Assembly (NCBI GenBank): GCA_965140785.1
Contig: OZ223481.1
Coordinates: 576,001-640,000 of the forward strand
DNA from: an uncultured Ruficoccus sp.
GTDB taxonomy: Bacteria > Verrucomicrobiota > Verrucomicrobiia > Opitutales > Cerasicoccaceae
Length of the DNA: 64,000 nucleotides
Direction: 5' to 3'
Shown in pieces: positions 2,732-50,466 of the stretch; the first letter of the stretch is position 1, and each line of letters opens with the position of its first letter. The notes below the pieces were generated by a model. It searched no databases, had not been told where the DNA came from, and was given only the letters and a program-made list of their open reading frames with translations. The position numbers and the translations under genes are program-made.

Positions 2732-4210
2732 CTACCAGGGAAAGGGGTAGGTGCGGACATAACTCTCCCGTCCGAACTCCTCGCTGGCCCACAGGAAGTC
2801 CCCGCACTCGACGACCTTGTCGTGATGCCCGGCGTGGATTAGCGGGATCATCTCACGGCAGAGGGCTTGTTCGCATTCGAGGAAAAGCTGGTGGCAGGCC
2901 GGATCGTGGATGCGGTTGCGCTGCTCCTGTGGGTCTTCCTTCAGGTTGAAGAGGGTGATCTCACCGGTGGCGTATTTGGCATATTTCCACTCACCGCTCA
3001 GGTACATGCACGCGTCGGAAAGCGCGCCGAGGATGAAGGAGCGGGGTGGGGTGGTGGGACGGTTCACGCCGCTGTAGGGCAGGCCCGGCAGCGGGATACT
3101 GTCCAGCTCGGGGGGGAGCTCGGCCCCCGCATAGGTGAGGAGGGTTGCGGTCACATCGGTCAGGGTGACGAGTTCGTCGCAGACGCGCTGCCGGGGCTCA
3201 AGCGGGTCACGCACGAGCAGCGGGATGTGGCAGCTTCCCTCATAGTAGCTACCCTTGCCGGCCATGTCATGATCGCCGACATAGTCGCCGTGATCGCTGG
3301 TGAAAATGATCAGCGTGTTGTCGAGTTGGCCGGCGGCCTCCAGTGCGTCGAGAATCGCCCCCACCTCGCGGTCGATCTGCTGAACGAGCCCGGCGTAGTG
3401 CTGGCGGACGCGCCGCTTCTGCTCCGGGGTCCAGCCGTCGAGCTCCACCCCGTTCCACGCCTTGCGGTTGCCCGCGTGATTGTTCGCTTTGAGTTGCGGG
3501 CAGTCGTCGGGAACGCTCGGTGCCGGGTCGGGGATGAGCGCGGGGTCGATGTCGGCGGTGAATTCCTCGTTGGGGTCGTAGGGGCAGTGTGGGCCGGTGA
3601 ATCCGACCATCATGGCGAAAGGCGTTTCAGCTCCGTAGCGTTGGAGGTAGTCCACGGCTTCGGAACCGACGAAGTGATCCCAGGAGAGCTCCCACGGGTT
3701 GCGGCTGATGACCGCGCCCTTGTTTTCGAGATAGCCGTCGTGTTCGAGCCCGGTGTATTTGCGGGTGCCGTGCCCGCGCAGGTAGCGGTAGTAGTTGTCA
3801 CGGATGTGCGGCCAGCGCTTGTCCTCGGTGACGGAGCGGTAGTCGAAGCCCATCCGCTCGGTCCAGGGGTAGAAGTGCATCTTGCCGATACCGGCGGTGC
3901 TGTAGCCGAGTTGGCCGAGGCGTTCGGGCCAGGTTTTAATGCCCTGCCGCTGGTAGTCGGGACGTATCCACTGGCCGTTGGTCAGGATGCCGGTGCGCAG
4001 CCCGTGCATGCCGGTGATGAGCGAGGCGCGGGCGGGCACACATAAAGGATGGATCGAATAGGCCCGGGTGTAACGGGTGCTTTGCCCGGCCAGCCGGTCG
4101 ATATTGGGGGTGTGGATAAAGTCCGCTCCGGCGTATCCGAGGAAGTCCCACCGAAGCTGGTCGGCCATCATAAAGAGGATATTCGGGCGCGTGGTTTGCT
4201 CGCTGTTCAT
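2732..4210 (-). CDS. Sulfatase (Cys-type, S1 family)
   Basis: PNILFMMADQLR, CVPARASLITG (CxPxR), GKMH, SDHGD. Confidence 0.92.
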   Translation of the reverse strand: MNSEQTTRPNILFMMADQLRWDFLGYAGADFIHTPNIDRLAGQSTRYTRAYSIHPLCVPARASLITGMHGLRTGILTNGQWIRPDYQRQGIKTWPERLGQLGYSTAGIGKMHFYPWTERMGFDYRSVTEDKRWPHIRDNYYRYLRGHGTRKYTGLEHDGYLENKGAVISRNPWELSWDHFVGSEAVDYLQRYGAETPFAMMVGFTGPHCPYDPNEEFTADIDPALIPDPAPSVPDDCPQLKANNHAGNRKAWNGVELDGWTPEQKRRVRQHYAGLVQQIDREVGAILDALEAAGQLDNTLIIFTSDHGDYVGDHDMAGKGSYYEGSCHIPLLVRDPLEPRQRVCDELVTLTDVTATLLTYAGAELPPELDSIPLPGLPYSGVNRPTTPPRSFILGALSDACMYLSGEWKYAKYATGEITLFNLKEDPQEQRNRIHDPACHQLFLECEQALCREMIPLIHAGHHDKVVECGDFLWASEEFGRESYVRTYPFPW

Positions 4211-4314
4211 GATAAAAATGTATAAGAATCCCTCGCCGCACCCGCATCAGAGCGCAGCCTGAAAAACCCGGAGAATGTGTTGGGCGGAAGCTTGGGGCGG
4301 TCGGGCTTGAGCGC

Positions 4315-4343
4315 CACCACCGCGCGATTTACGCGCGGTGGTG
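4315..4343. terminator. GC-rich stem-loop between PEP-CTERM gene and sulfatase
   Basis: CACCACCGCGCG/CGCGCGGTGGTG inverted repeat. Confidence 0.45.
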
Positions 4344-4373
4344 CCTTTTCAACCCGGACCCCTCGTCCGGGAT

Positions 4374-5231
4374 TTAAGCGTGTGTGCGGCGGCGGACGGC
4401 CAGGCTCAGCAACAGGGCGAGCGCGGCCAGGAGCGCGGCGGATTCGGAGGGCTCGGGGACCGACGTGTAGGTCTCCAAGTTGTCGATGAGGAAGTCCGCT
4501 CCCGTGGCGGTGCTGAAAGTGTTGACGCCGAAGCGTCCGAGCTCGAGCGACGGGGTCGTGAAGCCAATCGAGGCACCCACCAGCGTGTCGTCAATGTAGA
4601 GGTCGAAGGTCTTGGAGGCCACGCTGGTTTCACCGCTGCCGTCGAGCGCCGTGTAGGTAAAGGCGGAGTCGCCCCCGTTGGCCACAATCTCCATCGAGTG
4701 GGCGTCGGTCGGATCGGTGAGCGTCTTGCTGCCCCCGGACCAGGTTAGTGAGCCGTTGTATTTCAGGTTAATCGCGAGGGTCTGATTCGACGGGCTGCCG
4801 AAGGTCGTATTGTCGGCCGAGGTCAGCACAATGACGCCGAAGGAGCCGGTGCTCTCCGTGTCAACGGTGACGAAGCTGAAGTTGAAACTGACATAGCCGA
4901 CGTCGTAATTCTGGCTGGCGTCGCCGAAATTCAGCCCGGCGCGGGAGGTGGAGGAGTTGGAGTTGTCGTAGAAATACAGGCCCTTGCCGCTGCCGGCGGT
5001 ATTGGGCGGCAGGACGATGCCGGAGTCGCTGGCGGTCCCGCCGGTCTGGTCGGTGATCAGCTCATTCGCACCCGAGCTGGAGTTGTTGCCGAGCTTGTAC
5101 CAGTCACCGCCCGGCTGTTGGCCGAAGGTGTAGCTTTCGAAGTCGTCGGAGGCCAGCGGTGTCCACTGCGCCTGGCTGAGGGCGGCGAGGGTGAGCGATG
5201 ACAAGGCGAGGATAAGGGTTTTTTTGTGCAT
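4374..5231 (-). CDS. PEP-CTERM surface protein
   Basis: Signal peptide; C-terminal VPEPSES + transmembrane segment + RRR. Confidence 0.9.
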   Translation of the reverse strand: MHKKTLILALSSLTLAALSQAQWTPLASDDFESYTFGQQPGGDWYKLGNNSSSGANELITDQTGGTASDSGIVLPPNTAGSGKGLYFYDNSNSSTSRAGLNFGDASQNYDVGYVSFNFSFVTVDTESTGSFGVIVLTSADNTTFGSPSNQTLAINLKYNGSLTWSGGSKTLTDPTDAHSMEIVANGGDSAFTYTALDGSGETSVASKTFDLYIDDTLVGASIGFTTPSLELGRFGVNTFSTATGADFLIDNLETYTSVPEPSESAALLAALALLLSLAVRRRTHA

Positions 5232-5438: not shown

Positions 5439-6533
5439 TTGAAACCGATCATTACCCAGAAAGACATCGCCCAGGAAACCGGGCTCGACCAGTCCACCGT
5501 GAGTCTCGCCCTGCGGGACGATCCCCGCGTGAGCAGCCGCACCCGCAAGCGGGTACTCGCGACGGCGCGGAAGCTGGGCTACCGCAAGGACCCGATGCTG
5601 ACCGCGCTGGCCTCCTATCGCGGCGACCGTCAGCAGAAAACCTACCACGGCACCCTGGCCTGGCTGAACGATCCGGAGGTGTACAAGCTCGATTACTACG
5701 AGGACTCGGTCTATTACCATTATCGCGCAGGGGCGCAGGCGCAGGCGCTTCAGCACGGCTACAAGCTGGAAATATTCGAGGTGGAGATGGAGGCCCCGAA
5801 CCAGCGGCGGCTCTCGGAAATCCTCTACCACCGCGGGATCGAGGGCATCATCCTGCCGCCGCTCCGTCATGCCGGTCCGGCGCTGAAGCTCGAGTGGGAG
5901 CATTTCGCCGTGGTGACTTTCGGCTGGACGGTGATGGAGCCGCACTTTCACTGCGTCAGTCCCAACCACTATTATAACGGCACCGAAACTGTGCGGAATT
6001 TTCGTGCGCTGGGCTATCAGCGTATCGGCGCCGTGCTCTTCATGCCGCCGAAGGATGTGGGCAAGTGGCATTATCACCTCTGGGCCCAGGGCGTGGAGAC
6101 GAGCGTTTTCACCACTGGAGGCCCCGGGGCGGTCCCGACTCTGCGCTTGACCTCCTGTGAGCGTGATCAGGCTGAAGTCTTTCAGGCCTGGTACCGTAAA
6201 TACCGCCCGGATGCGATCGCCATGATGATGGAGTGCTCGGACTTCGTGGAGGACAGCCTGAAAGAGATCGGCATCCAGGCCCCCCGCGATGTGGGCCTGG
6301 CCTGCTTCGTTTACAGGAGTCAACAGAAGCACCTGGCCGGGGTTCGGGAGAACTCCCCTTACATCGGCAAGGCGGCCGTGGACATGCTCGTGGGCACCAT
6401 CCGGCGACGCGAGTTCGGTGCGCCGCCCGTGCGCCGAATGCTGCAAATCGATGGCTCCTGGGAGCCCGGCAAGAGCGTTCGTAAACAAACCGGCCGCGCT
6501 GCGTCGACGCGGAAGAAAGCCCACCGCGGATGA
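5439..6533 (+). CDS. LacI-family transcriptional regulator
   Basis: ITQKDIAQETGLDQSTVSLAL HTH, LGYRKDP hinge, sugar-binding domain. Confidence 0.92.
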   Translation: MKPIITQKDIAQETGLDQSTVSLALRDDPRVSSRTRKRVLATARKLGYRKDPMLTALASYRGDRQQKTYHGTLAWLNDPEVYKLDYYEDSVYYHYRAGAQAQALQHGYKLEIFEVEMEAPNQRRLSEILYHRGIEGIILPPLRHAGPALKLEWEHFAVVTFGWTVMEPHFHCVSPNHYYNGTETVRNFRALGYQRIGAVLFMPPKDVGKWHYHLWAQGVETSVFTTGGPGAVPTLRLTSCERDQAEVFQAWYRKYRPDAIAMMMECSDFVEDSLKEIGIQAPRDVGLACFVYRSQQKHLAGVRENSPYIGKAAVDMLVGTIRRREFGAPPVRRMLQIDGSWEPGKSVRKQTGRAASTRKKAHRG

Positions 6534-6705: not shown

Positions 6706-8187
6706 ATGGCCTTAACCTACCCAATGACTTCTCGTATGCTTCAGCGAACTTTCATCCTCGCCACCCTGAGCGTTCTGGCGCTGATCCGGCCCCTGCCCGG
6801 CAAGAACGTCGTCTTCGTGCTCGCCGACGACCTTAGCCCCCGGCTGGAGTGTTATGGCGGCGACGTCATCTCGCCCAACCTGGACAAGCTGGCCGACGAG
6901 GGCTGCCTCTTCGAGCATGCCTACGCCCAGGCGACGATCTGCACGCCCTCCCGCGCGAGTATTATGACCGGTATGCGACCCGACGCCATCGGCACACGCG
7001 ACAACAACTACCGCAAGTCCCGCTTCCGCAATTACCTGCCCGACGTGCAGACCCTGCCGCAGTATTTGCAGCAGTTCGGCTATACCTCAATCGGCCTGGG
7101 CAAGAGCTATGGCCCGCCCGACCCGGACTCGTGGTCCCGGGAGGATCTGGGTGAGGCTCCGGGCATCGAGCAGTACGCCCTGCCGGAGAACCGCGCGACC
7201 TATGAAAAAAACAAGCAAGCGGGCAAACGCGGCTGGTACAACATGGGCCCGCATACGGAATCGGCGGAGGTGCCCGACTCGGCCTACCCGGACGGACGTG
7301 TGACCGACCGGGCGATTGAACTGCTGCACGCGTTGAAGGACGAGCCCTTTTTCCTCTACATCGGCTACCAGCGCCCGCACCGTCCCTTCACCGCGCCGAA
7401 GAAGTACTTCGACCTGTACGCGGACCAGACGCTGGCCTTTCCCGGTCCCGGCGGCTATCCCGAGGGGGCGCCCGAGCTCGCGCTCAAAACCCACTACAGG
7501 TCTGCGCCCCAGCCCGGCGACAAGCGCTACGCCCGCGACTACAACCAGATGCTCGGCCACTACGCGGCCGCCAGCTATGTGGACGCGCTGTTCGGGCGCG
7601 TGATGGAAACCCTGCGGGAGCTCGACCTCGACGAGGAGACACTGGTCATCTTCAGCGCCGACCATGGCTTCCATGTCGGGGAAAACGGCCAGTGGGATAA
7701 GTCCGCGCTTTTTGAAACAACCTGCGCCGTGCCGCTGATCATTCACGTGCCGGGGGACAAGGCTCAGCCTGTGCGGATCACCCAGCCGGTCGAGCTGCTC
7801 GACCTGTACCCGACGGTTCTGGATTTTCTGGAATTGCCCTATCCGCCGCAACTGGCGGGCAAGAGCCTGCTGCCACTCATGACCGGCTCGGGGAAGTCCG
7901 GCAAGGAGGTGGCCTACACCGAAGTCATGCGCAGTGCCGGGGGCAAGAACGCCGCCATGAACTGGGACGGCAGCATCGAGGGCCGTAGCCTCCGCAGCGG
8001 CGATTACCGACTCAACCGCTGGTGGGACGCGCAAACCGGCCAAGTGCTCGCACTGGAGCTTTACGACTACTCTCTGCCTCAACCCGAAACCAAAAACCTG
8101 GCCGACGATCCCGCCTATGCCGACATCCAGGCCCGCCTGCTGGCGCAGCTTGATGCCCAGTGGCCGCTTCTGCCCTCGTCCAATTAA
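6706..8187 (+). CDS. Secreted sulfatase (iduronate-2-sulfatase-like)
   Basis: NVVFVLADDL, CTPSRAS, RPHRPF, ADHGFHVGE. Confidence 0.9.
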   Translation: MALTYPMTSRMLQRTFILATLSVLALIRPLPGKNVVFVLADDLSPRLECYGGDVISPNLDKLADEGCLFEHAYAQATICTPSRASIMTGMRPDAIGTRDNNYRKSRFRNYLPDVQTLPQYLQQFGYTSIGLGKSYGPPDPDSWSREDLGEAPGIEQYALPENRATYEKNKQAGKRGWYNMGPHTESAEVPDSAYPDGRVTDRAIELLHALKDEPFFLYIGYQRPHRPFTAPKKYFDLYADQTLAFPGPGGYPEGAPELALKTHYRSAPQPGDKRYARDYNQMLGHYAAASYVDALFGRVMETLRELDLDEETLVIFSADHGFHVGENGQWDKSALFETTCAVPLIIHVPGDKAQPVRITQPVELLDLYPTVLDFLELPYPPQLAGKSLLPLMTGSGKSGKEVAYTEVMRSAGGKNAAMNWDGSIEGRSLRSGDYRLNRWWDAQTGQVLALELYDYSLPQPETKNLADDPAYADIQARLLAQLDAQWPLLPSSN

Positions 8188-8192
8188 ATTTC

Positions 8193-10358
8193 ATGTCCCG
8201 TTTACCCTTTATCCCGATGCCGCGATTCGTCCCGATCTTTTCCGCTGCCGCGCTGACCCTGCTCGGCTTGCTCGCCACCGGTTGCGAGCGTGGGCCGCTT
8301 ACCTCCGCTGTCTCATCTGCCCAGACGGAGGACAGCGTGGAAGTTGCGGACGCCACCTCGCCACAGGAGGCCGCCACCGTGGCGCACGTAGAGGAGTTTG
8401 AAGCACCGACTTACCTGCCCGCGCTGGGAGATGAAGACCCGGGCAAGGGACAGCGTTCGCATCGTCGGACCCCGCCGCCGCCGGTGCCTACGCCTGAGGA
8501 AATCGCCGCCATCGCCAAGCACGTGACGAAGCAACCCGTGGGCGTGGGCGTGCCAGCCAGTGACCGGACGGTGTGGGGGGAATTGGCCGCGCAGCCGCAG
8601 GCGCGGGACCTGATCCGGGAGGCCGGGCAGGCCCTCGACGAGCCCATCGCCCCGCTGACGGCGGAGCTGTGGCAGCGCTATGAGAAAACCGGTGATCGCA
8701 CGGCCTACCAGGACGCCTCGACCGCCCGCTATAATCGCCTCCGTGCCCTGGCGCTCGGCGAGGCGTTGGAGTATGAGGGGCGCTTCATCCCGGCCATCGA
8801 GGAGACGCTGACCGCGATATTCGAGCAGGGAGCCTGGAGCGTCCCTGCGCACGGCAAGGGCATGGACGTTTTCGAGGGCGAGCGGATCGTCGTCGATCTG
8901 GCCGCTTCACAACTGTCCTGGACATTGGCTACGGTGGACTATTGGCTGGCTGCCAAACTCCCCGCCGAGGTGCGCGCACGTCTGAAGACCGAAGTCGAGC
9001 GCCGCGTGCTGCATCCATACCTGGAGGCAATCCGCACGGGCCACGCCTTCTGGTGGATGGACGGCACGAATAACTGGAGCGCTGTCTGCTGCGGCTCCAT
9101 CACGGGGGCGGCGCTCAGCCTGGAGCCGGATGTAAATGTGCGTGCTGAGTTCATCGCGGACGCCGAGGTCATCCTCGGGCGCTACATCGACAGCTTCAGC
9201 GACGAGGGCATCAGCGAGGAAGGCATCGGCTACTGGAGCTACGGCTTCTCGCACTTTCTCTATGCCAGTGAGGCGATCCGCCGTTCGACCGGCGGAGCCA
9301 TCGACCTGCTGGATGATGAGAAGGTTTTTCGTGTCAGCCAGTCACCGCTCAGCCTGGAAATCGCCGACAACGTCTACGGCGCCTTCGGCGACCAGTCTGT
9401 CAATGGCAAGCCCGACAAGCAGCTCTACACCTTTGCCGCCCGGCGCTACGGGCTTCGCTGGGCCGAGGACGTGCGCTTTGACCAGATCAGCAAGGGCGTC
9501 TCCCATCCGCTCGGGCCGCACCTGTATTCACTCATTATTCGGACCTTTGGCCAGGATGCTGCGCCCGTGGAGGGCTTTGATATCGAGTCGGGGCAGGCTG
9601 ACGATCGGGCGCTGCGCAGTTGGTTCCCCCAGGGCGAACTGTACATCTGCCGTCCGGGCGACACCGATCAGGATGCCATGAGCGTGGCCATCCGCATCAG
9701 CAACAACGGGGAATCCCACAACCATAATGACGTCGGCAGCTATGTCGTCGTGTACAAGGGAGTGCCCGTGCTGGCCGACCCGGGGATGGAGCGCTACACG
9801 GCGAAATCCTTCGGCCCGCACCGCTACGAGTCGGGCCTGAATAATTCCTTTGGACACCCGGTGCCGTTGGTGGCGAACCGGATGCAGAAGGCCGGGGAAG
9901 AGGCCTTTGGAGAAATCCTCAGCGCCACCCCCGGAGAGCAAACCGACACCCTCGTCATCGATCTGACCGAAGCTTATCGTTCGCCCGGCCTGGAGCAGCT
10001 CATTCGCACGCTTCGCTACGAGCGCCCCGGTAAGGACGGCCCGGGAGCAATCGTCCTCACCGACTGCGTGCGCAACAGCCAGCCCGAGGATTTTTCGATG
10101 GCGTTGATCACGCGGGGAACTTTCACGATCCTCAGCCCCACGACGGTCAAGATCACGGATAGGGGCGTTTCTCTCTACGCACGCGTGGACGCGCAGGGGC
10201 GGCCTTTTGCTTTTGTCGAAAGCCCGATTACGGGCTTCACGAATCCGGACAAGGCCAAAGCCCACCGCCTGGGCATTTATCTGCTCAACCCGGTCGAGGA
10301 GGCCTGTCTCACCGTCACCGTCACCCCTACGCCTCCCGACGACACGCCTTCCAAATAA
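8193..10358 (+). CDS. Heparinase II/III-like polysaccharide lyase, lipoprotein
   Basis: Lipobox LATGC; NNW, EGIGYWSY, SHNHNDVGS, DPG motifs. Confidence 0.8.
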   Translation: MSRLPFIPMPRFVPIFSAAALTLLGLLATGCERGPLTSAVSSAQTEDSVEVADATSPQEAATVAHVEEFEAPTYLPALGDEDPGKGQRSHRRTPPPPVPTPEEIAAIAKHVTKQPVGVGVPASDRTVWGELAAQPQARDLIREAGQALDEPIAPLTAELWQRYEKTGDRTAYQDASTARYNRLRALALGEALEYEGRFIPAIEETLTAIFEQGAWSVPAHGKGMDVFEGERIVVDLAASQLSWTLATVDYWLAAKLPAEVRARLKTEVERRVLHPYLEAIRTGHAFWWMDGTNNWSAVCCGSITGAALSLEPDVNVRAEFIADAEVILGRYIDSFSDEGISEEGIGYWSYGFSHFLYASEAIRRSTGGAIDLLDDEKVFRVSQSPLSLEIADNVYGAFGDQSVNGKPDKQLYTFAARRYGLRWAEDVRFDQISKGVSHPLGPHLYSLIIRTFGQDAAPVEGFDIESGQADDRALRSWFPQGELYICRPGDTDQDAMSVAIRISNNGESHNHNDVGSYVVVYKGVPVLADPGMERYTAKSFGPHRYESGLNNSFGHPVPLVANRMQKAGEEAFGEILSATPGEQTDTLVIDLTEAYRSPGLEQLIRTLRYERPGKDGPGAIVLTDCVRNSQPEDFSMALITRGTFTILSPTTVKITDRGVSLYARVDAQGRPFAFVESPITGFTNPDKAKAHRLGIYLLNPVEEACLTVTVTPTPPDDTPSK

Positions 10359-10377: not shown

Positions 10378-11061
10378 ATGTTCCCCATTAACAACCCGCG
10401 CACCAGATATGGCCTGAGCCGCAACGGGTTTTCCCTGATCGAGCTACTGGTAGCTATCACTGTGCTCGCTATCCTGGCCACGCTCATCGTCGGCGTCAGC
10501 CGGAGCGCCTATATGTCCTCTCAGAAGGCCGTCGCCATGAACGGCCTGCGGTCGATCGGAGGCGCTATTCAGTTGTATGCCCAGGATAACCAGGGCTATC
10601 TGCCCGGCCCGTTGTGGTCATCCGCCAACGCCTTTTATGGCCGAACCGATGAGCGGGCGCTGGGCTATCATCTGGCGCCTTACCTGGGCCTGCCCCAGAC
10701 CGACAGCGGCCCACAGGTCTTTCCACAGGCGAGTTGCCCGCTCTTCGAGGATGTGCGACCGGCCGATGGCACGCCCGCCTATTTTATCACGCAGAGCGTG
10801 ACGCTGCCCGAGGGCAACCGGAACCCCTGGGGCTATCGTTCTAAAAGCCAGAGCGAGGACGAGGGCAGTCGGCCTCAATTGCTTTCCCGCATTATCATGG
10901 AGAGCGATCCAGATACCTGGGCCATGCATGCCGCCGATGCCGGAAACATCACCAATCCTTCCGCCGGCTGGGCTTCGAAGATTTTGCCCGAGCCGCTCTT
11001 CGGCGATGTGAGACTTTATCTGTACTTCGACTGGCACGTGGAATTTGTACCCGTGGAGTAG
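10378..11061 (+). CDS. Prepilin-type N-terminal cleavage/methylation protein
   Basis: GFSLIELLVAITVLAILA; C-terminal YLYFDWHVE, a variant of the H-X9-DG tail. Confidence 0.85.
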   Translation: MFPINNPRTRYGLSRNGFSLIELLVAITVLAILATLIVGVSRSAYMSSQKAVAMNGLRSIGGAIQLYAQDNQGYLPGPLWSSANAFYGRTDERALGYHLAPYLGLPQTDSGPQVFPQASCPLFEDVRPADGTPAYFITQSVTLPEGNRNPWGYRSKSQSEDEGSRPQLLSRIIMESDPDTWAMHAADAGNITNPSAGWASKILPEPLFGDVRLYLYFDWHVEFVPVE

Positions 11062-42691: not shown

Positions 42692-45600
42692 ATGTATAAC
42701 TTAATTGCAGTTATTTTGTTTCTTGCTATCTTCATTCGTCCGCTGAATTCCCAGACTCTGGAAGTTATTAATGAGGCCGGAAATTCCAACATTCTGTTCA
42801 AAGTCGAATCGTTAGAAATCTCTGACGATATCAATTACTTCGGAGGAAAAAACTGGGACAGCTATGAGAACAAAGTGACACTTGATGCTGACGGGATTGC
42901 TGTGCTAAATACATATGGTACGGAGGCTGATTGGTCATTCCGGCGGGAGATTGGTGTTTTGGCTGGCGGCCATGAAGTGGAAATCACCATTCAGGCATAT
43001 CAGAAAGCATATAGCAATGTGCAGGGTAATCATTTTGAATATGTGATAAGGATGCCGCGGGTCGGGCTTGAAGGCATTCGCTGGGAGGCGATTGTCGGGC
43101 GCTCGAAGCGAACGGCAGAGGAATCCGGCGTTGTCGATTCTGCTGCTTCCAATGGGGGGCTTCCGGTAAGTCCTTGCCGCTGGATCAACTTCGATTTGCC
43201 TTCCGGTAGTATTGTTTTCGATTTCAATCCCGAGGGTGTTACTTCCTACTCCGACTGGGGGCAGACGCTGATCCGCGGGCAGTGGATAATAAGGGTTCGT
43301 GGCGACTTTATTGAGTTCGTATTCTCCCAGTCTGCGGGCATTACTGGATTTACGATCAACAGCAAAGTTCTCATTTTTGAAGGGACACTTGCTGACTATG
43401 ATGCGCGTCACACGGAAAAGAAGTATTACTATTACGATAACTTCCGCGCGGCAAAAAGCTTTAGCTTTGGTGCGTCAGTTCCCGGCGAATCATTTACCCG
43501 CGTTGACGATACATTGTTTTCGAACAATGCTCAGGCCGGTTGGTTGGATAATGCGCCGGTTGCATTGGGGAAAATTGCGGATAAGGGAGGGTTTTACGGC
43601 TACGCAGAGGGGAGCGAAGCGTCCGTATTCCAAAGCGTGGTCGATCCCGGTCTGTATCTGATAAATGTCTCCGTGGCCAGTGGTGAGGATGCTCTGAATC
43701 CGTTTACGATCAGCTCGAACGGCCGGCTTGTTTCTGATGACTCGGCTTTGCCTGCTGAAAACTTGCGCACCTACACCTTTTCGCAGTGGCTTGACGACGG
43801 CATCTTTCGCCTTGAGCTTGGTTCCGACTGGAGGATATCGGCTGTTACGTTGCAATTGATCCAGCGTCGGACTGAAGACTATAAAGTGCGGCGCTCTTTT
43901 TGGCGCGTTTCCGATCTGTATGAGCCGTCAACGCTTTATAGTTCCTTTGACTATTCAGGGGAGCCGGATTATAAGGTGGTTGTTCAGGATCAGCCACTGC
44001 CTGTTTATATTGATTCGGATATTCCCAATGCGATTATTCAGGCGGATAGTGAGGTGTTGCTTCCGGATCAGCGCAGTCCGAGTTTTGCCTGGCGGACAAA
44101 TTCGACCCTAGGAAGTTTGGGGACGGGAGTCTTGGGCAGTTTTGATGAGTTTAATACGCCTGAGCTTATTGCTCGCCGCGTTGCCGAGCTTAAAGAGCGC
44201 GGGATTACTGCGATCACTGTTGACGGGCTGCACTCGCGCCTGCTTTTTTCCGAGCAACTGCCGAAGGTGGAGGAGAATATGCGAATGCTGGTTGAGGAGT
44301 GCCATCGCAACGGCATCAAGGTCATTGACCATTACAGCCTTACTCTGCTTTGGAACTGGGGGAACGGCACCCGTTTTTTGGTCGAGCATCCGGACTGGTT
44401 GCAGCGTTCGGTATCGGAAAATCTTCCGAATCGGGGTATCTGCCCCAATAACCCAGAGTTTCGAGAGTTCTACTTTGACTATGTTAAAGATTTTATCGCG
44501 AAGACGGATATTGACGGCATGATGATTGACGAGATCGGTTTTCAGAATAAGAGCACTTGCGCCTGTATTTACTGCCGCGAGGCCTTCACCCGAGATACGG
44601 GGCTTGTGCTACCTTTGAATGAAACTTCGCATCTTGTTGATCACATCAGTACTAACTTAGGCAAAAGTTATCTCGCATGGCGTGCGCGTTCCATTGGTGA
44701 CTTCTACGTTGAAATGCGTCGTGAAATTAATAAAGTAAAGCCCGAGTTTACGTTGTTAAACTATACTACACACCGCCTTTTTTTCGAGAGTGAATGTGTG
44801 ATTGCTAACGGCGTGAGTATTACGGAGGCAGCACGCGGATCAGACTGGCTTGGGATCGAGTTTATGACGCGGGCACCGATGGCGTCCCATCGTACCAATC
44901 TTGCATTTGGGAAACTGACAAATTCGCTACGCATGGCGTACGATGCCCCGATCTTTCGTCTGGTCTATACAAATGATTATGATGTCGCGTATTTTTGCTG
45001 GGCACAAAACGCGATGCTGGGGCAGGTGACGTGGTTTATCAATCCGGTTCCCGAATCCAAGGGCAGAGACTTCTCCCAATATAAAAGCGGAATGGATGTT
45101 AACAGCGCCACGCCGCGCGCAACGGTTGCGATGTTTTTCTCTACGCAGAGCCGCGACTGGGCGGGGCGGGGTATGCCGCATGCTCCCGACGCGGTTGGCT
45201 TTCTGCAAAACCTTGGTGATCGCAATGTACCGGCCATTGCCCTTATTGAGCCTTCATTCAGCCCTGAAGAATTGTCGGAGTATCCGGTTCTGATTCTGCC
45301 GAGTGCATCCTGTATGTCGGATCGTGAGGTTGAGGTCGCTCTGGATTTTGTGAAAGACGGCGGCTATCTGGTGGTGACGGGTGATACCGCAACGTTGGAT
45401 GAGGCAGGAAACCCGCGCACGGTCTGGCCTTTTGCCTCGCTGTTTGGCATCTCTCCGGAGCCATTTAAGCGGGTGCGTATATCGACGATTCAGTCCGGTG
45501 ATTCCGTTGTGGCGGCTCCTGCCAACATGAGGTTCGCTGCTCTTAAGAACGTAGAGCATGCCAAGGGGGATGTTGTTTTTGAAGCTACCGAGCCTAACGG

Positions 45601-46132
45601 GCGCACTTATCCGGTCGGTTTGGCCGTCGATTACGGCAAGGGCAAGGCCCTTTATCTGTCCGGACAGTTTGGTGTTTTAAACTACGAGCCTTATGAGCAG
45701 AAACTGGGGGTTGTGCCGGTTCTGTCGCGCAGTGCCGAGCAGGATGCTGTTATGGATGCCTTGCTGGGAGAGGTTCTCGCGGGTCGGAATTTTTTCGATT
45801 TCCCATACTCAGGAGATCGTATTGCGTCCACGGTTTATACTGAGAAGACGGCTGATGGGGAGGCGACGCTTGTGCATCTTCTCAATACAGCCGGGGCCGG
45901 CTATCCATCCGGAGTCATTGTGCGTGAAGTAGCTTATGGCGATCCGTTTCCTGCGCTTGAAGCCATTACTTTTGGCATCGCAACGCAGCCAATTGTGTCT
46001 GCCAAACTTACATCTCCTGATTTTGACGGCGAGATTAAGTTGGCATGGCAGAAACGTGCAGACGGAACTTTTCAGATTGAAATCCCCGGTGGGACTTTTT
46101 CCAGCTATGCGATTGTTCGTCTGGAGCACTGA
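42692..46132 (+). CDS. Large secreted putative glycoside hydrolase with beta-galactosidase trimerisation-like domain
   Basis: Signal peptide; CHRNGIKV, EHPDW, CPNNPEF, DGMMIDEI, CACIYC, FVKDGGYLV. Confidence 0.7.
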   Translation: MYNLIAVILFLAIFIRPLNSQTLEVINEAGNSNILFKVESLEISDDINYFGGKNWDSYENKVTLDADGIAVLNTYGTEADWSFRREIGVLAGGHEVEITIQAYQKAYSNVQGNHFEYVIRMPRVGLEGIRWEAIVGRSKRTAEESGVVDSAASNGGLPVSPCRWINFDLPSGSIVFDFNPEGVTSYSDWGQTLIRGQWIIRVRGDFIEFVFSQSAGITGFTINSKVLIFEGTLADYDARHTEKKYYYYDNFRAAKSFSFGASVPGESFTRVDDTLFSNNAQAGWLDNAPVALGKIADKGGFYGYAEGSEASVFQSVVDPGLYLINVSVASGEDALNPFTISSNGRLVSDDSALPAENLRTYTFSQWLDDGIFRLELGSDWRISAVTLQLIQRRTEDYKVRRSFWRVSDLYEPSTLYSSFDYSGEPDYKVVVQDQPLPVYIDSDIPNAIIQADSEVLLPDQRSPSFAWRTNSTLGSLGTGVLGSFDEFNTPELIARRVAELKERGITAITVDGLHSRLLFSEQLPKVEENMRMLVEECHRNGIKVIDHYSLTLLWNWGNGTRFLVEHPDWLQRSVSENLPNRGICPNNPEFREFYFDYVKDFIAKTDIDGMMIDEIGFQNKSTCACIYCREAFTRDTGLVLPLNETSHLVDHISTNLGKSYLAWRARSIGDFYVEMRREINKVKPEFTLLNYTTHRLFFESECVIANGVSITEAARGSDWLGIEFMTRAPMASHRTNLAFGKLTNSLRMAYDAPIFRLVYTNDYDVAYFCWAQNAMLGQVTWFINPVPESKGRDFSQYKSGMDVNSATPRATVAMFFSTQSRDWAGRGMPHAPDAVGFLQNLGDRNVPAIALIEPSFSPEELSEYPVLILPSASCMSDREVEVALDFVKDGGYLVVTGDTATLDEAGNPRTVWPFASLFGISPEPFKRVRISTIQSGDSVVAAPANMRFAALKNVEHAKGDVVFEATEPNGRTYPVGLAVDYGKGKALYLSGQFGVLNYEPYEQKLGVVPVLSRSAEQDAVMDALLGEVLAGRNFFDFPYSGDRIASTVYTEKTADGEATLVHLLNTAGAGYPSGVIVREVAYGDPFPALEAITFGIATQPIVSAKLTSPDFDGEIKLAWQKRADGTFQIEIPGGTFSSYAIVRLEH

Positions 46133-46249: not shown

Positions 46250-46900
46250 ATGAAGCCTGTAATATCTTTGTATGCAGCCTCGAAGCGTAATGATGACGCT
46301 TATGTCGCTGCACTTCTTTGGAGAGCAAGCCCGATCCTGTTGCGGGTGAAGCAAGCGGTTGTGGAAAACTCCTGCGGAGAGCTACGCTCACTGCGCTTTA
46401 CATGGTCGCGCCCGAAGAAGCGTGCATCAGGCAGTGCGGATTTTGTCTACGGGACATTGGGGGCGATGCTGGATGGCGTGTGTGCACTGGTGGGAGGTGA
46501 CTGCAGGAGCTTGCATATCGAGAAGTGCGAGGGGGCAAACATTTTGTTCGCTCTGGCCGAGTTTACCGGAGGTGTTGTGGCCGAGTTTGAACTGAATGAA
46601 TGCCTGCCGGACTCAATGCCCGATATCTGCTTTGTTAAGGCGAATTTTACCGATGGACATCTTACGAATCAGCCTCTGGTTGGGTATTTAAATGATGAAG
46701 GTGCGATCTTTGCAGATGATGAATCACTCCGCTTTCCGATGCCGCTGGGCAATGGAGAACTGACGGTGGAGGGGCCGGTCGAATATCTCGGGCACTGTTT
46801 CAAGACAGCAGTGCAATCGGGCACAATCCCGTGCGGTGCGCAAAACTCAGCCCGTTTAATTAAACTTATTGATGTAGCTCTGACCCATGCAGAAAATTAA
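46250..46900 (+). CDS. Hypothetical protein, possibly a Gfo/Idh/MocA C-terminal-like domain
   Basis: CGELRSLRF segment resembles the neighbouring oxidoreductase (LGEIKSIYL); no Rossmann motif. Confidence 0.5.
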   Translation: MKPVISLYAASKRNDDAYVAALLWRASPILLRVKQAVVENSCGELRSLRFTWSRPKKRASGSADFVYGTLGAMLDGVCALVGGDCRSLHIEKCEGANILFALAEFTGGVVAEFELNECLPDSMPDICFVKANFTDGHLTNQPLVGYLNDEGAIFADDESLRFPMPLGNGELTVEGPVEYLGHCFKTAVQSGTIPCGAQNSARLIKLIDVALTHAEN

Positions 46901-48002
46901 CATACTCATTGCCGGAACGGGAAACCCGCATATCCCTGCTTACCTTCGGGGGAGCGGGCGTGATGTGAGCGGGCTGAACATCGTTGCAGTTTCGGATGCG
47001 GACGCAGGGCGTTTGGAGCGGGCGGGGGAAATGCTCGGTGACGACTCCGCCCGTGTACGCTTTTACCGTGACCACAGGGAAATGTTTGCCGCGCATCCGG
47101 ATGCGGATGCCGTGATTATCGGCAGTGATAATATCGATCATCTACGCATGTTTGAAGATGCGGTTTTCCACAATTTTCACATCTTTATGATGAAGGTGAT
47201 CTCGATGGATGAGAGAGAGTGCCGTCGGATGCTTGAGTTGGTCAAGAGCTATGACAGGGTGGTGCAGTGCGAGCTGGAGCTGCACTTTCACCCTCAGTTC
47301 AGGGCTGCGCGGGAGCTTGTCCGCTCGGACAGACTGGGCGAAATAAAATCCATATACCTGAGCAATATCAGCCAGAGCCCTTGCAATTATTTCCCCAACT
47401 GGGGCGACCCGGTGCTGTCGTACGGAAAGAAAATTCCGATTCGTCCGGGAGCGGATTATTACCGCGGAGGGGCATTGACTGATCACCCCCATGCCTTTGA
47501 CATGGTGCGCTGGATTACCGGTGCAGAGTTTGATACCGTGCGTGCGCTGTCTGCCCTGAACCAGCGTTCGCATCTAGAAGTTGAGGATCATGTTGCCGTC
47601 ATGGGGCGTCTGGACAACGGCGTGAAATATTTTATCAATCCTTCGTACTCCAATCTGGAGGAGCGGGTTGCGACACGCAGATTGCTCTGGCCGAAATCTT
47701 TGGAGTGTAATCTGAAGATCACGGGCACCGCAGGGTATTATTCCTGTGATTTCTTTGACCATCACTGCTACATAATCGGTAGCAATTATGTCTCTGCAAA
47801 TCGTCTGATCGTTGACAGCACTCCGCGCCCTAAACCCGATCAGGATGATTCGATTATCGGGAGCTTTATTGCGTGCATCCATAAGCGGCGGGAGCATCCC
47901 GAGTCTGCGCTGGCCGATTCTTATGCCGCAGTAAGAGTGATGAATGCGGCCTATGAGTCGATTTATCATAATTGCGAAATCACACTGGAGCCGCTGCGGT
48001 AA
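46887..48002 (+). CDS. Gfo/Idh/MocA-family oxidoreductase
   Basis: IAGTG, DAVII, GGALTDHPHAFD, EVED. Confidence 0.88.
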   Translation: MQKINILIAGTGNPHIPAYLRGSGRDVSGLNIVAVSDADAGRLERAGEMLGDDSARVRFYRDHREMFAAHPDADAVIIGSDNIDHLRMFEDAVFHNFHIFMMKVISMDERECRRMLELVKSYDRVVQCELELHFHPQFRAARELVRSDRLGEIKSIYLSNISQSPCNYFPNWGDPVLSYGKKIPIRPGADYYRGGALTDHPHAFDMVRWITGAEFDTVRALSALNQRSHLEVEDHVAVMGRLDNGVKYFINPSYSNLEERVATRRLLWPKSLECNLKITGTAGYYSCDFFDHHCYIIGSNYVSANRLIVDSTPRPKPDQDDSIIGSFIACIHKRREHPESALADSYAAVRVMNAAYESIYHNCEITLEPLR

Positions 48003-49348
48003 TGAGTGTTGTTGAAAATACGTATCGCTGTGGCACGCTGACTTACACGAGGCTCGGATTGATCAATCTGTTCGTCTGGCTGCTGTGGGGAGACTTTTGT
48101 TATACCATCATGGCTACCATGATGCCGACTCTGGTCCCGCTGATGCTGCGCAGCCATGATGCCAGTAATTTCACGATCGGACTTTTGGTCGGGAGCGTAC
48201 CTGCGATCCTGAACTTTATTATCAATCCGATTGTCAGCACAACCAGTGACCGTACGCGGAGCCGCTGGGGACGCCGCCGTCCGTTCCTGATGTTCTCACC
48301 ACCTTTTGTGGTGATATCGCTGATCCTCCTTGGCTGGAGCGACAACATCGGCGCATTCTTCTATCAGATGGCTTGGGGAGATGAGGGGAGCCCGGCAACA
48401 TTCATCATCTGCCTGATTGCCATCTTTACGATCTCATATCAGGCCTTTGATCTGTTTGTCGGCGCAGTGTACTCTTATCTGTTTGCCGATGTTGTGCCGC
48501 TGCAGTTTATCGGCCGCTTTATGGCTCTGTTCCGTATGGTCGGTGCATTGGGCGGAATGTGCTTCAATCTTGTCGTGCTGCCGTTGGCCGATGTGCATAT
48601 GCCTATGATCTTTACGGTCATTGCGATTATCTACTTTCTCAGTTTCACTGCAATGTGCATTAATGTGAAAGAGGGCGAGTACCCGCCTCCGGCAACGGTT
48701 GCCCCCGGTATTTTGCCAATGGTGAAGATGTATGTGCGGGAATGCTTCAGTATCCCCTTCTTTTTCATTCTGTTTATCGGGCTCGGGATGAACTACGCAT
48801 CCACGGTTTGCCGTGGAATATTCAATCTGCTTTTCGCTACCGAGACGTTGGGCCTCAGCCTGAGACAGTATGGGAATATTGCAGTCGTTGGCTCGATTGT
48901 CGCCATTGTGCTCTATATCCCTGCCGGTATTCTGGTTGACCGGCTTCACCCGCTGCGGGTTTACATGATGGGGGCCGTGCTAGTCATACTTGCAAATTTA
49001 TTTGGATTTTTCTTCGTCAGCGATTTCTACAGCTTCTTCATCGTCGCCGTCGTTATTGCGATTGTCTACGTGTTTCAGGACAGCAGTATGCTGCCTATCT
49101 GTGTTAAGCTCTATCCGAAGGCAAAGTTCGGGCAGTTTTGTTCGGCTGCGGCTATGGTGAAGGCGCTGCTCCTTGTGGCGGCCAATGCCGGTGGGGGAGC
49201 ATTTATTGACTGGCTTGGGTATCAGTATATCTTTATCTGGGACCTTATATTCACTTCGATTTGCTTATGTGTCCTTATCTGGGTATATCGCAAATGGAAG
49301 ACTCTCGGCGGAGATCGGAACTACACGCCGCCGTGTGTTGAAACGTAA
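48002..49348 (+). CDS. MFS transporter
   Basis: SDRTRSRWGRRRPF motif; about 12 hydrophobic segments. Confidence 0.9.
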   Translation: MSVVENTYRCGTLTYTRLGLINLFVWLLWGDFCYTIMATMMPTLVPLMLRSHDASNFTIGLLVGSVPAILNFIINPIVSTTSDRTRSRWGRRRPFLMFSPPFVVISLILLGWSDNIGAFFYQMAWGDEGSPATFIICLIAIFTISYQAFDLFVGAVYSYLFADVVPLQFIGRFMALFRMVGALGGMCFNLVVLPLADVHMPMIFTVIAIIYFLSFTAMCINVKEGEYPPPATVAPGILPMVKMYVRECFSIPFFFILFIGLGMNYASTVCRGIFNLLFATETLGLSLRQYGNIAVVGSIVAIVLYIPAGILVDRLHPLRVYMMGAVLVILANLFGFFFVSDFYSFFIVAVVIAIVYVFQDSSMLPICVKLYPKAKFGQFCSAAAMVKALLLVAANAGGGAFIDWLGYQYIFIWDLIFTSICLCVLIWVYRKWKTLGGDRNYTPPCVET

Positions 49349-49404
49349 TGCGGGTCAGGCCTGCGATGTGCTGCATCTCTGATGCTGCGTTGTTGCCGGT
49401 AGCA

Positions 49405-50466
49405 TCAGGGCGCCGGAGTGCTCTTTAACGGACCGCGCAGAGTCGGCCCCTCCGTCCACTGCGGGCGGAGCAGCAACTCGCGGCTTGCTGAAGGAATGCC
49501 TGTGTCACCGCGCAGGATGAGGCTGTGCATGAGATCGATTGCTCCTTCGCCGATCTGATCGACGTTAAGGATGATGCCTGCGGCCTCGGGCGAATGGATG
49601 TTGGTAATCAGTGAAACACCGACATCTTCAGGCACCCTGACTCCGGTGGAGCGGATCCAGTTGATGGCTTTTACCTGCGGTGTCACCACGACTTCGGGTC
49701 TTTCGCTGAGAAACCACTCGGTGAAGTCTTCCTGCTCGATCTGGTCGGGCAAATAGGGGCGGACGTACTCCAGCTTCCGGTCGTGGGGCAGGTGCCATTC
49801 TTTACTGAGGCCACCAAGCCACTCAAACCGGTGTCGTTGCAATAAATGGCGTTGCTGTGCGAGGCCGATTCTGCGCACTCCGCGTGCTTTGAGTTGTTTG
49901 CAAATCAGATGCATCGACGAATACGCGTCAACTGCCACGCGGTGCCATTGTTCGACATAGGCAGGGTCGCCAACTCCGACGCCGACCAATGAATAGTATT
50001 TCCAGTCCATCTTTGGCAGCTTCGCGGTTTCATTGCGAAAAGGCAGAACGATTAGACCTCTTGTGCCTCGCGCCTTCAGAATACGATCCGGCTGCTTCCA
50101 ATTGTGTAGGTGCTTTTCTAAAAGAACTTCGTTCAGGGCATAGCCGTATAAAGCCGCAGCCTTATGCATTCCCGACAGGCACAGCTTGAGCCATGAGTTG
50201 TCTTCGCCAGCACGGTCATCCGTCCAGCAGTCATCAATGATAACTGCAAGATTTGCCAGTGCGCGCCGCTGGCCACGCCGTGCAACCAGTGCGGCCAGTA
50301 TCGGATCTGGCCTGTAGCCCAATTCCTTGGCAGCCTCTCTGAGCCGTGCCCGTGTGGAAGCTGCGATTTCTGGGTTATTACGTAGCCCCATGCTTGCGGT
50401 TGCTATGCTTACGCCGGCATGGTTTGCGACATCTCTCAACGTGATGTTTTTTTCGTCAGATGGCAT
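49405..50466 (-). CDS. LacI-family transcriptional regulator
   Basis: ITLRDVANHAGVSIATASMGL, LGYRPDP, VPEDVGV. Confidence 0.92.
   Translation of the reverse strand: MPSDEKNITLRDVANHAGVSIATASMGLRNNPEIAASTRARLREAAKELGYRPDPILAALVARRGQRRALANLAVIIDDCWTDDRAGEDNSWLKLCLSGMHKAAALYGYALNEVLLEKHLHNWKQPDRILKARGTRGLIVLPFRNETAKLPKMDWKYYSLVGVGVGDPAYVEQWHRVAVDAYSSMHLICKQLKARGVRRIGLAQQRHLLQRHRFEWLGGLSKEWHLPHDRKLEYVRPYLPDQIEQEDFTEWFLSERPEVVVTPQVKAINWIRSTGVRVPEDVGVSLITNIHSPEAAGIILNVDQIGEGAIDLMHSLILRGDTGIPSASRELLLRPQWTEGPTLRGPLKSTPAP

Follow-up and report, generated by a model that had tools for sequence, protein, structure and literature searches.

Marine and gut carbon cycling poses the question of how Verrucomicrobiota and Planctomycetota take in whole glycans without SusC/D transporters, selfish uptake having been observed by an outer-membrane route still to be established. 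A 64-kb stretch of DNA from an uncultured Ruficoccus sp. (positions 576001-640000 of contig C10 in a 4.36-Mb, 50-contig Verrucomicrobiota genome; hereafter the window) raises this question with three carbohydrate loci, A, B, and C. According to the original prediction, each locus combines exactly one PEP-CTERM gene and one prepilin gene with a sugar regulator and carbohydrate-active enzymes (CAZymes), and these substrate-specific pilin-like subunits and surface proteins plug into a shared pilus/type II secretion system (T2SS) and exosortase machinery to capture glycans, as a functional analogue of SusC/D. Annotation of the window (Pfam on 53 open reading frames [ORFs], NCBIfam on 16 proteins, plus direct translation) revealed in all three loci a sorting-signal protein and a prepilin-like protein together with carbohydrate enzymes and a regulator of the LacI or XylR type, while correcting several details. 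The proposed interpretation was supported in part, namely, with regard to gene linkage, the encoded machinery, and the pilin fold, and not with regard to exactly one gene of each kind per locus. At the scale of the genome, most sugar-utilisation clusters carry their own pilin-like protein, often together with a lectin-like surface protein.

The linkage seen in the window exceeds chance in this genome. Among 3609 genes called with a codon-usage model, a hidden Markov model (HMM) built from 27 motif-selected paralogues matched 57 pilin-like genes, of which the 45 scoring at least 60 bits were kept and the 12 weaker ones dropped. A regular expression for the C-terminal motif returned 77 PEP-CTERM genes, and iterated HMM searching that started from the regulators of loci A, B, and C yielded 68 genes for LacI/XylR-type regulators. 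Of the 45 pilin-like genes, 10 directly adjoin a PEP-CTERM gene (null mean 1.9, maximum 8), 16 have one at most two genes away (null 3.6), and 22 at most five genes away (null 8.5). These values were reached in none of 2000 label shuffles and in none of 1000 circular shifts, the latter being a null that keeps gene clustering intact. Eight of the 10 direct pairs are encoded on the same strand, with the PEP-CTERM gene upstream in seven of those eight, and gaps within the direct pairs range from -8 to 241 bp. Similarly, 30 of the 45 pilin-like genes have a LacI/XylR-type regulator within five genes (null 7.2; 0/1000) and, conversely, a pilin-like or PEP-CTERM gene lies within five genes of 50 of the 68 regulators. 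A same-strand neighbour is found less than 150 bp away from 35/45 pilin-like genes.

Pfam scanning of 227 out of 246 neighbours located up to three genes from a pilin-like gene (19 from loci L042-L045 were left out) and of 140 genes in 20 random seven-gene blocks unveiled three enriched classes of domains (Fisher tests):

Glycoside hydrolase (GH), polysaccharide lyase (PL), sulfatase, and carbohydrate-binding module (CBM) domains: neighbours 45/227, random 6/140, p 1.7e-5
Sugar-type regulators (LacI/PBP3/AraC/GntR-PBP/ROK): neighbours 28/227, random 3/140, p 4e-4
SSF/MFS_2/RhaT/ABC-sugar transporters: neighbours 15/227, random 1/140, p 7e-3

Four of the six CAZyme matches in the control set fall in the four random blocks that touch pilin-like neighbourhoods. 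The neighbouring enzymes include GH78/GH106 rhamnosidases, GH10, GH113, GH20, GH29, GH2, GH39, GH66, and GH71 members, as well as alginate lyases, heparin lyases, and sulfatases. Since they span many substrates, the pilin-like gene is a general accessory of sugar loci that is not bound to a single substrate. Two other readouts were set aside. A crude signal-peptide rule applied to the large neighbours (8/18 versus 143/450 for all large genes) was judged unreliable because start codons are uncertain, and a search for cobalamin riboswitches gave a single, uninformative sub-threshold match (29.1 bits versus 31.5; C10:385505), about 92-106 kb from the nearest pilin-like genes.

The pilin-like family occurs in all 21 relatives searched, with 33-66 matches in genomes of the same genus, 1-6 in sampled genomes of 0.8-2.7 Mb, and 2-9 in other genomes of up to 5.1 Mb. 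Replication relied on 20 top-listed matches (a non-random draw) from three other genera of the same family, taken with 8 kb on each side (windows of 16.6 kb), and on 20 control windows offset by about 100-200 kb, mostly 100 kb. A PEP-CTERM ORF was found in 16/20 pilin-centred windows versus 2/20 controls, and a regulator in 13/20 versus 2/20. Across the phylum, 55 of 61 sampled genomes encode the family, some with hundreds of candidates. Pfam annotation of the immediate neighbours of 20 such pilin-like genes placed sugar-type regulators at 7/20 loci, CAZyme-type domains at about 6/20, and other uptake genes directly adjoining the pilin-like gene at four (L125, L122, L130, and L127), namely, ZnuA with an ABC ATPase, a PHO4 phosphate transporter, a phytase-like protein with a PEP-CTERM ORF, and ExbB with a CobN-type chelatase. 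With members beside zinc, phosphate, and CobN/ExbB genes, the family is thus not confined to sugar loci, and its neighbourhoods agree with a possible role as a general nutrient-acquisition accessory. Co-occurrence beyond what family abundance predicts, as proposed originally, was therefore evident in this genome and in three other genera of the same family, and was not significant in the small phylum sample; the linkage rule is solid within this family and may or may not hold beyond it. In a single-protein search, the locus B pilin-like protein had a 94% identical orthologue in a Verrucomicrobiota metagenome-assembled genome, and its N-terminal 60-160 residues matched proteins of Armatimonadota (Fimbriimonadaceae, Chthonomonas; L107-L118) at 33-57% identity, which hints at similar pilin-like expansions outside the Planctomycetota-Verrucomicrobiota-Chlamydiota (PVC) group.

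The pilin-like members encoded in the window are as follows:

10378-11061, plus strand: prepilin-like protein of the H-X9-DG/DUF1559 paralogue family, locus A (TIGR02532 29.9 bits; genome-built family HMM 179.6 bits)
31494-32168, plus strand: prepilin-like H-X9-DG/DUF1559 protein, locus B (TIGR02532 29.0 bits, TIGR04294 25.8 bits, and PF07596 29.7 bits, all above cut-offs)
40008-40733, plus strand: prepilin-like H-X9-DG/DUF1559 protein, locus C (TIGR02532 20.7 bits; PF07596 24.1 bits; family HMM 117.9 bits)

All three exceed the TIGR02532 cut-off of 16.3 bits and score 118-180 bits against the HMM of this genome's paralogues. Their class III (prepilin) signal is intact (G-1, F+1, E+5) and is followed by about 205 residues; E+5, the residue needed for assembly of the pilus fibre, is invariant in the paralogue alignment. 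Among 39 paralogues, the mean column identity is 19%, with a conserved SNLRQIG stretch on the long helix, a variable middle, and a C-terminus of the form RH-x-G-x4-LF-x-DGHV. The H-X9-DG motif is present in two of the three window proteins, as recognised by TIGR04294 in locus B (cut-off 19) and by eye, with no HMM match, in locus C (H-RNGHNFLYF-DG); in the locus A protein, the H and the G are both replaced (F...DW), and PF07596 (DUF1559; cut-off 23.3) gives no match. Scores for the GspG equivalog TIGR01710 reached only 22.6-24.6 bits versus the required 88.85, and over the N-terminal region only. An AlphaFold2 (AF2) model of the locus B protein (pLDDT 76, pTM 0.73) consists of a 50-residue alpha1 helix (23-73) on an antiparallel four-stranded sheet. 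A VIA-align search with this model retrieved pilins or pseudopilins in 21 of the 22 top rows (Z 3.0-5.7), including PilA4 (Z 5.7), EpsG (Z 5.3), a CFA/III-type pilin (Z 5.0), PulG (Z 4.2), and GspK-I-J (Z 3.3), along with PilV, PilE, and the DNA-uptake minor pilin ComP. Structure prediction, suggested at the outset as a check, thus supports a type IV pilin or pseudopilin fold for the modelled protein.

The same protein might instead act as a membrane-anchored periplasmic binder or sensor that is never polymerised and that feeds the sodium:solute symporter (SSS) or MFS symporter or signals to the regulator, which we regard as very improbable. Sugar transporters are indeed enriched among the neighbours, several of them abutting the pilin-like gene, and the secondary transporters of these loci have no binding protein of their own. 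Moreover, Pfam files DUF1559 as SBP_bac_10, and the accessible part of PMC4807772 terms the family solute-binding proteins. The solute-binding-protein fold implied by the Pfam name was nevertheless discarded, as no periplasmic-binding-protein chain occurs among the 50 listed VIA-align rows and the model adopts the pilin lollipop fold. A static anchor would also leave unexplained the strict conservation of the prepilin-peptidase motif and of E+5, and the LacI/XylR regulators are cytoplasmic, with no need for a periplasmic sensor.

The sorting-signal partners in the window are the following:

4374-5231, minus strand: 285-aa exported PEP-CTERM protein, locus A (SVPEPS, hydrophobic stretch, and RRR; TIGR02595 17.5 bits versus cut-off 16)
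23284-24081, plus strand: 265-aa exported protein with a variant sorting signal, locus B (IPEQS, hydrophobic stretch, and KRGAGRK)
38929-39909, plus strand: 326-aa exported protein with a PEP-CTERM signal, locus C (IPEPS...RRRRS; PF07589 14.0 versus 20.7)
13171-15450, minus strand: fourth PEP-CTERM protein, 759 aa, with a pectate-lyase-like adhesive domain (PF20585 E 1.6e-6; TIGR02595 20.4 bits versus 16)

Only the locus A protein and the 759-aa protein pass the curated PEP-CTERM threshold (TIGR02595). The locus B protein, annotated originally as PEP-CTERM, does have a sorting-type C-terminus, which reads IPEQ instead of PEP and lacks HMM support. Each locus holds a prepilin-like gene as claimed. 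The claim of exactly one PEP-CTERM gene per locus hinges on the boundary chosen, because the fourth gene begins 300 bp beyond locus A. The locus A protein has one paralogue elsewhere in the genome that adjoins another pilin-like gene, and the 759-aa protein has a 766-aa paralogue on contig C48. PEP-CTERM proteins encoded near pilin-like genes are 225-538 aa long, and many carry an F/Y-x-E/D-x-F motif right after the signal peptide. The idea that these partners form one sequence family was dropped upon clustering, which gave mostly singletons, so that the class is set by its signals.

For the locus C partner, a search of 5.8 billion sequences detected only four homologues. Its AF2 model retrieved ConA-like lectin/glucanase folds in nearly every one of the 50 best structural rows (led by peanut lectin, Z 7.6 over 168 residues), and the top rows comprise legume-type lectins, ERGIC-53/VIP36, PL7/14/18 lyases, GH12, and LamG. 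A language-model atlas places the protein among Verrucomicrobiota PEP-CTERM hypotheticals, with a Laminin_G_3 cluster at 0.91. In a Pfam scan of 19 PEP-CTERM proteins (16 genes no more than three genes from a pilin-like gene, plus window loci A and B), Laminin_G_3 was above cut-off in two and 3keto-disac_hyd was weak in one; the sorting-signal proteins of window loci A, B, and C had no Pfam domain. Profile-profile comparison of the locus C family with LamG-type paralogues gave 86.8% probability over 70 columns, covering the last strand region and the anchor only. The locus C protein is thus probably a ConA-like jelly roll, the model suggesting this lectin-like fold at low confidence, and we consider with moderate confidence that the PEP-CTERM partners are small lectin-like beta-sandwiches.

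The shared pilus/T2SS and exosortase machinery assumed in the original prediction is encoded elsewhere in the genome, which has one prepilin peptidase (Peptidase_A24), five secretin matches, seven T2SSE-family ATPase matches, and four exosortase matches (PF09721, each above cut-off) at three loci. Three of the T2SSE-family matches lie in ORFs of 389-396 aa, whose size alone would fit PilT-type retraction ATPases. Short pilin-like genes in tandem, along with clustered secretin and ATPase genes, were noticed at C18:67157-70831, C46:7575-9802, C40:7783-17876, and C23:6398-10388, with three adjacent T2SSE-family ATPase genes on contig C23; these are probably the core pilus/T2SS operons for the scattered paralogues. 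The loci themselves lack TonB receptor and pilus assembly genes, as stated in the original prediction. None of the 53 scanned window ORFs contains a TonB-receptor, secretin, or pilus-ATPase domain, and none matched the Pfam families SusD, Plug, or TonB_dep_Rec. Genome-wide, TonB_dep_Rec has only two matches, both on contigs other than that of the window. With the machinery encoded elsewhere, the locus-specific pilin-like and PEP-CTERM proteins cannot work alone.

We tentatively favour a role of the pair in glycan capture and inward transfer at the outer membrane, with the pilin-like protein as the specificity subunit. Each sugar operon would be controlled by its own LacI/XylR-type regulator and induced by its sugar, and would provide enzymes for depolymerisation (exported) and for finishing (cytoplasmic) as well as an SSS/MFS importer. 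To these, the operon would add a substrate-matched minor pilin, loaded onto a shared pilus or pseudopilus fibre, and often a PEP-CTERM lectin-like protein that would keep the glycan at the cell surface. The pair would thereby capture the glycan and hand it across the outer membrane to the periplasmic enzymes and the inner-membrane symporter. Co-regulation, fibre incorporation, glycan binding, and transport direction are the steps that we infer. We prefer inward transfer because the presence of a separate diverging binding module in each operon follows the logic of SusC/D, TonB transporters are lacking for the roughly 68 sugar regulons of this genome, the neighbours of pilin-like genes are enriched in importers, and ligand-specific uptake conferred by a minor pilin has a known example (ComP). 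A further reason is that Verrucomicrobiota internalise labelled glycans and that, in Akkermansia, mul genes, including a pilin-like one, are needed, according to the accessible part of PMC13174399.

Several observations weigh against this proposal. The gene calls, the PEP-CTERM regular expression, and the regulator HMM are all home-made, and the seed of the sulfatase HMM inadvertently took in an overlapping heparinase-like gene. Only 15 of the 45 pilin-like genes combine a PEP-CTERM gene with a regulator at a distance of at most five genes, and another count of 15/45 applies to those with no LacI/XylR-type regulator at that distance. The related genomes are non-independent samples, and sulfatases were not enriched in the replication windows (4/20 versus 5/20 controls). 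Among 20 pilin-centred windows taken from 17 further genera of the phylum, PEP-CTERM ORFs (4/20 versus 1/20 controls, p 0.34) and regulators (5/20 versus 2/20, p 0.41) were not significantly enriched, in a comparison where 8/20 offset controls themselves hold pilin-like genes and the regular expression and HMMs were tuned on this genome; several pilin-like genes of this sample adjoin housekeeping genes. As for the proteins, the fold evidence for the pilin-like family is moderate, with every Z below 8 and no Foldseek match of the locus B model to the PDB at E<=1e-3, the locus C PEP-CTERM protein was poorly modelled by AF2 (pLDDT 49), and the 77 PEP-CTERM proteins are mostly BLAST singletons, the largest cluster having five members. 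Finally, the same data are compatible with export or surface display. Each window locus encodes at least one large exported enzyme, and 18 of the 45 pilin-like genes abut a same-strand gene of at least 500 aa (null 9; 4/2000), both of which fit export equally.

These last points lead to the main rival, an adaptor for export or surface display, i.e., a cargo-specific minor pseudopilin that would let the shared T2SS push out the exported enzymes of its locus (large glycosidase, lyase, or sulfatase) together with the PEP-CTERM protein, the latter being one cargo or an anchor for cargoes. We deem this possible, although rather unlikely. The pilin-like gene lies directly 3' of the large exported enzyme gene in loci A (19-bp gap) and B (26-bp overlap), the pseudopilins EpsG, PulG, and GspK-I-J are among the fold matches, GspG is the best family-specific NCBIfam match at the N-terminus, and a PEP-CTERM protein of a diderm needs some route across the outer membrane. 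In the accessible part of PMC13274419, a pulG-like pseudopilin is likewise taken as part of T2SS export of alginate lyases, and, as reported in the part of PMC11685898 that was available, a planctomycete T2SS is up-regulated on fucoidan. Against export, the excess of large neighbours is modest, and the GspG equivalog score, 24 bits, is far from that required. To our knowledge, a single minor-pseudopilin set serves all cargoes in known T2SSs, and 45 cargo-specific minor pseudopilins would lack precedent. Some pilin-like genes abut importers, namely, RhaT (L002), MFS_2 (L033), ABC permeases (L038), and the SSS gene of locus A, and those of other lineages that adjoin ZnuA-ABC, PHO4, or ExbB with CobN stand beside uptake genes unaccompanied by enzymes.

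The remaining genes of loci A and B show the kinds of enzymes, regulators, and transporters with which the pair resides:

2732-4210, minus strand: sulfatase, locus A (PF00884 E 3.2e-44; N-terminus without a visible signal peptide)
5439-6533, plus strand: LacI-family regulator, locus A (PF00356, PF13377)
6706-8187, plus strand: exported sulfatase, locus A (PF00884 E 6.8e-47; N-terminus resembling a signal peptide)
8160-10358, plus strand: 732-aa lipoprotein-type exported protein, weakly heparinase II/III-like, locus A (PF07940; LATGC lipobox-like N-terminus)
11155-12867, plus strand: SSS gene, broken, locus A (SSF/TIGR00813 profile pieces in three frames)
24132-26905, plus strand: two GH13 alpha-amylase-family enzymes, locus B (PF00128; both without signal peptide)
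27025-28173, plus strand: XylR-type regulator, locus B (PF13377, Peripla_BP_3, E 2.6e-27, and PF12833 AraC HTH)
28253-31519, plus strand: large exported GH42-like enzyme, 1088 aa, locus B (PF02449, PF08532, PF10633; signal-peptide-like N-terminus)

In locus A, the two sulfatases, the LacI regulator, the PEP-CTERM protein, and the prepilin protein are all as predicted, but the heparinase-like lyase is a weak assignment (PF07940, Hepar_II_III_C, 21.4 bits, under the cut-off of 24), and the SSS transporter belongs to the expected family without being an intact gene. Its SSF/TIGR00813 profile pieces (46-139, 151-253, and 294-394) map to ORFs 11273-11665, 11481-12041, and 11992-12867 in different frames, as would result from either a pseudogene or assembly errors (indels). 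The two GH13s, XylR, the GH42-like enzyme, and the prepilin protein attributed to locus B were all recovered by Pfam/NCBIfam. The three loci do differ in GC content, which is about 0.59-0.64 in A, 0.57-0.60 in B, and 0.48-0.53 in C.

Locus C is the cargo of an integrated island, and its PEP-CTERM and pilin-like genes, the latter 98 bp 3' of the former, head the operon:

32285-59654, no strand: integrated island of ~27.4 kb carrying all of locus C (direct repeats, tRNA, integrase, lower GC)
40806-41837, plus strand: protein without recognisable family, first annotated as GH-like
41849-42607, plus strand: SIS-domain protein (PF13580 E 1.4e-38)
42692-46132, plus strand: large exported GH-like enzyme (GHL/GH42M-like), 1146 aa (signal peptide; Pfam)
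46887-48002, plus strand: GFO/IDH/MocA oxidoreductase (Pfam)
47972-49348, plus strand: MFS_2 sugar transporter (Pfam)
49405-50547, minus strand: LacI-family regulator, convergent (PF00356 E 2.2e-13)

The SIS gene is followed by the GH-like enzyme, an unknown protein, the GFO oxidoreductase, and the MFS transporter. The prepilin, SIS, oxidoreductase, MFS, and LacI genes were thus correctly called, the PEP-CTERM gene has a clear motif with a sub-threshold score, and of the two GH-like enzymes originally proposed only one is supported, since ORF 40806-41837 matches no Pfam family at a threshold as lenient as E<=1 and nothing meaningful among PDB sequences. The supported one, 42692-46132, scores 32 bits (versus 27.9) for PF02638 GHL10, 26.6 (versus 25.8) for PF08532, and 34.8 (versus 35) for PF14871. 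The island is bounded by 162-nt direct repeats (32285-32446 and 59493-59654; 96% identical), the right one overlapping the 3' part of a tRNA-Gly(CCC) gene (59609-59683, minus strand), and its GC content is below that of the flanks. It encodes a tyrosine integrase (58059-59432, minus strand), an IS30-like transposase (50544-51521), a polB-type polymerase (33636-36125), an HTH_17 excisionase-like protein, a PD-(D/E)XK nuclease, and a DUF932 protein. A search of 20 relatives, including four congeneric genomes, did not recover the DNA of locus C. With the two genes heading an operon that is island cargo, the module moves as a unit and must use the machinery of the recipient. The island also contains a 91-nt direct repeat (53465-53555 and 54203-54293, 738 bp apart; 97% identical).

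The location of locus C on an island is also what would be expected if the pair had no shared function, numerous fast-evolving families simply residing with CAZymes and regulators in flexible, horizontally exchanged regions. The hundreds of family members in some genomes of the phylum, their presence in 8/20 control windows, the non-significant enrichment at this level, and the housekeeping neighbours all fit such co-residence. We nonetheless hold it to be improbable, as neither the label-shuffle nor the circular-shift null ever reaches the observed linkage, which holds between immediately adjoining genes and favours one strand arrangement and gene order, involves close same-strand neighbours in most cases, and repeats in three other genera. 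In addition, pseudopilins are induced on alginate in a related isolate, as judged from a single-replicate proteome in the accessible part of PMC13274419.

Other features of the window lie outside the three loci. The interval between A and B (13171-22760) encodes, besides the fourth PEP-CTERM protein, a PAS histidine kinase, a LuxR-type response regulator, a third exported sulfatase, and an HAD hydrolase, and forms another cluster of envelope and sugar genes, one that lacks a pilin-like member. At its end, just 5' of locus B, ORF 21966-22760 encodes a small protein with a weak match to the Phenol_MetA_deg outer-membrane barrel family (19.6 bits versus 22); a clearer member of this family (E 3.9e-6) adjoins a sulfatase gene in a random control block (L056:4556-5311). 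These Phenol_MetA_deg-like proteins are possible outer-membrane channels of sugar loci. At the window start, a second tyrosine-integrase ORF (328-1485) overlaps or abuts a tRNA-Arg(TCG) gene (891-966), which suggests another island boundary.

DUF1559/H-X9-DG proteins rank among the largest paralogue families of Verrucomicrobiota and Planctomycetota, and in one Verrucomicrobiota family individual members can now be linked to sugar regulators, CAZymes, importers, and lectin-like proteins with a PEP-CTERM signal. A vague paralogue expansion is thereby turned into concrete substrate-matched candidates. Should the pair be a specificity module for either uptake or export, glycan loci could be better predicted in PVC genomes, for which present predictors of polysaccharide-utilisation loci (PULs) rely on SusC/D. 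More speculatively, and with considerable doubt on our part, Opitutales-type Verrucomicrobiota may import polysaccharides, and their relatives perhaps other scarce nutrients, through a TonB-independent pilus machine, whose shared, possibly retractile fibre (type IV pilus or T2SS-like) would pull the glycan through a secretin to the periplasm, with the substrate-specific minor pilin and the glycan-capturing, PEP-CTERM-anchored lectin of each operon as mobile two-gene plug-ins. If true, pilus-based import would be a functional replacement for SusC/D, and its specificity modules would travel with the enzymes on mobile islands.

Both halves of the pair have counterparts in known systems. The PEP-CTERM/exosortase system is classically tied to exopolysaccharide and biofilm loci. 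Like the substrates of this sorting pathway (TIGR02595/PF07589), reportedly described by Haft et al. in 2006, the partners described here start with a signal peptide and end in a PEP motif (PEQ in locus B) followed by a hydrophobic helix and a basic tail, and the genome has exosortase genes; they differ in being small, probably lectin-like substrates in catabolic sugar operons beside pilin-like genes. With the T2SS pseudopilins GspG-K and type IV minor pilins, the pilin-like proteins have in common the class III signal (G-1/F+1/E+5) and, in the model, a long alpha1 helix with a small sheet, and ComP exemplifies a minor pilin that gives a shared fibre a specific ligand for uptake through the secretin. 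In contrast, the genes studied here lie outside pilus or T2SS operons, as 45 paralogues scattered among sugar operons, and classical pilins lack the C-terminal H-X9-DG motif of this family. The expansion of DUF1559 in PVC bacteria was already known (PMC4807772, as far as accessible). Our literature search retrieved no paper that links PEP-CTERM proteins with DUF1559 or gives a genome-wide rule, and the accessible text of the DUF1559 literature mentions neither sugar loci nor a tested function.

A verrucomicrobial, SusC/D-independent route with pilus-type proteins has a precedent in MUL1/MUL2 of Akkermansia muciniphila, where such proteins are genetically required for glycan uptake (Davey et al. 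2023, as cited in the accessible parts of PMC13174399 and PMC12418764). One component of MUL2, as described there, is a PilM protein, and another structurally resembles a type IV pilin. Unlike the genes reported here, MUL2 (Amuc_1099-1102), compared by description, is a single conserved locus without per-operon paralogues, and the descriptions in these sources do not mention PEP-CTERM or H-X9-DG proteins. Closer still is Verruconatronum alginivorum (Opitutales, 2026 paper; PMC13274419), the only directly relevant prior report of prepilins or pseudopilins at CAZyme loci in Verrucomicrobia that our literature search found. In the accessible part of that report, an alginate-induced polysaccharide-lyase cluster contains the gene of a pulG-like pseudopilin, which has 67 paralogues, a second pseudopilin is over-expressed on alginate in single-replicate proteomes, and the genes neighbouring the pseudopilin were transferred together. 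Both cases feature an Opitutales pseudopilin-like gene with many paralogues within a polysaccharide cluster. Compared by description, the report differs in concerning one cluster, read as T2SS export, with neither a genome-wide rule nor a PEP-CTERM partner reported in that part.

Collectively, these comparisons place our findings as a variant of the polysaccharide-utilisation-locus idea with a candidate specificity protein pair. The window differs from Bacteroidota PULs in having no SusC-type transporter or SusD (SusD was sought in the window only, and the genome has the two TonB_dep_Rec matches noted above), in the pilin-fold and PEP-CTERM-anchored proteins found instead, and in its LacI/XylR/AraC regulators. 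It resembles them in the logic of one regulator-controlled operon per glycan, with exported and intracellular CAZymes or sulfatases, an inner-membrane importer, and fast-diverging envelope proteins, among which the lectin-like one at the surface would be the counterpart of SusD and of surface glycan-binding proteins.

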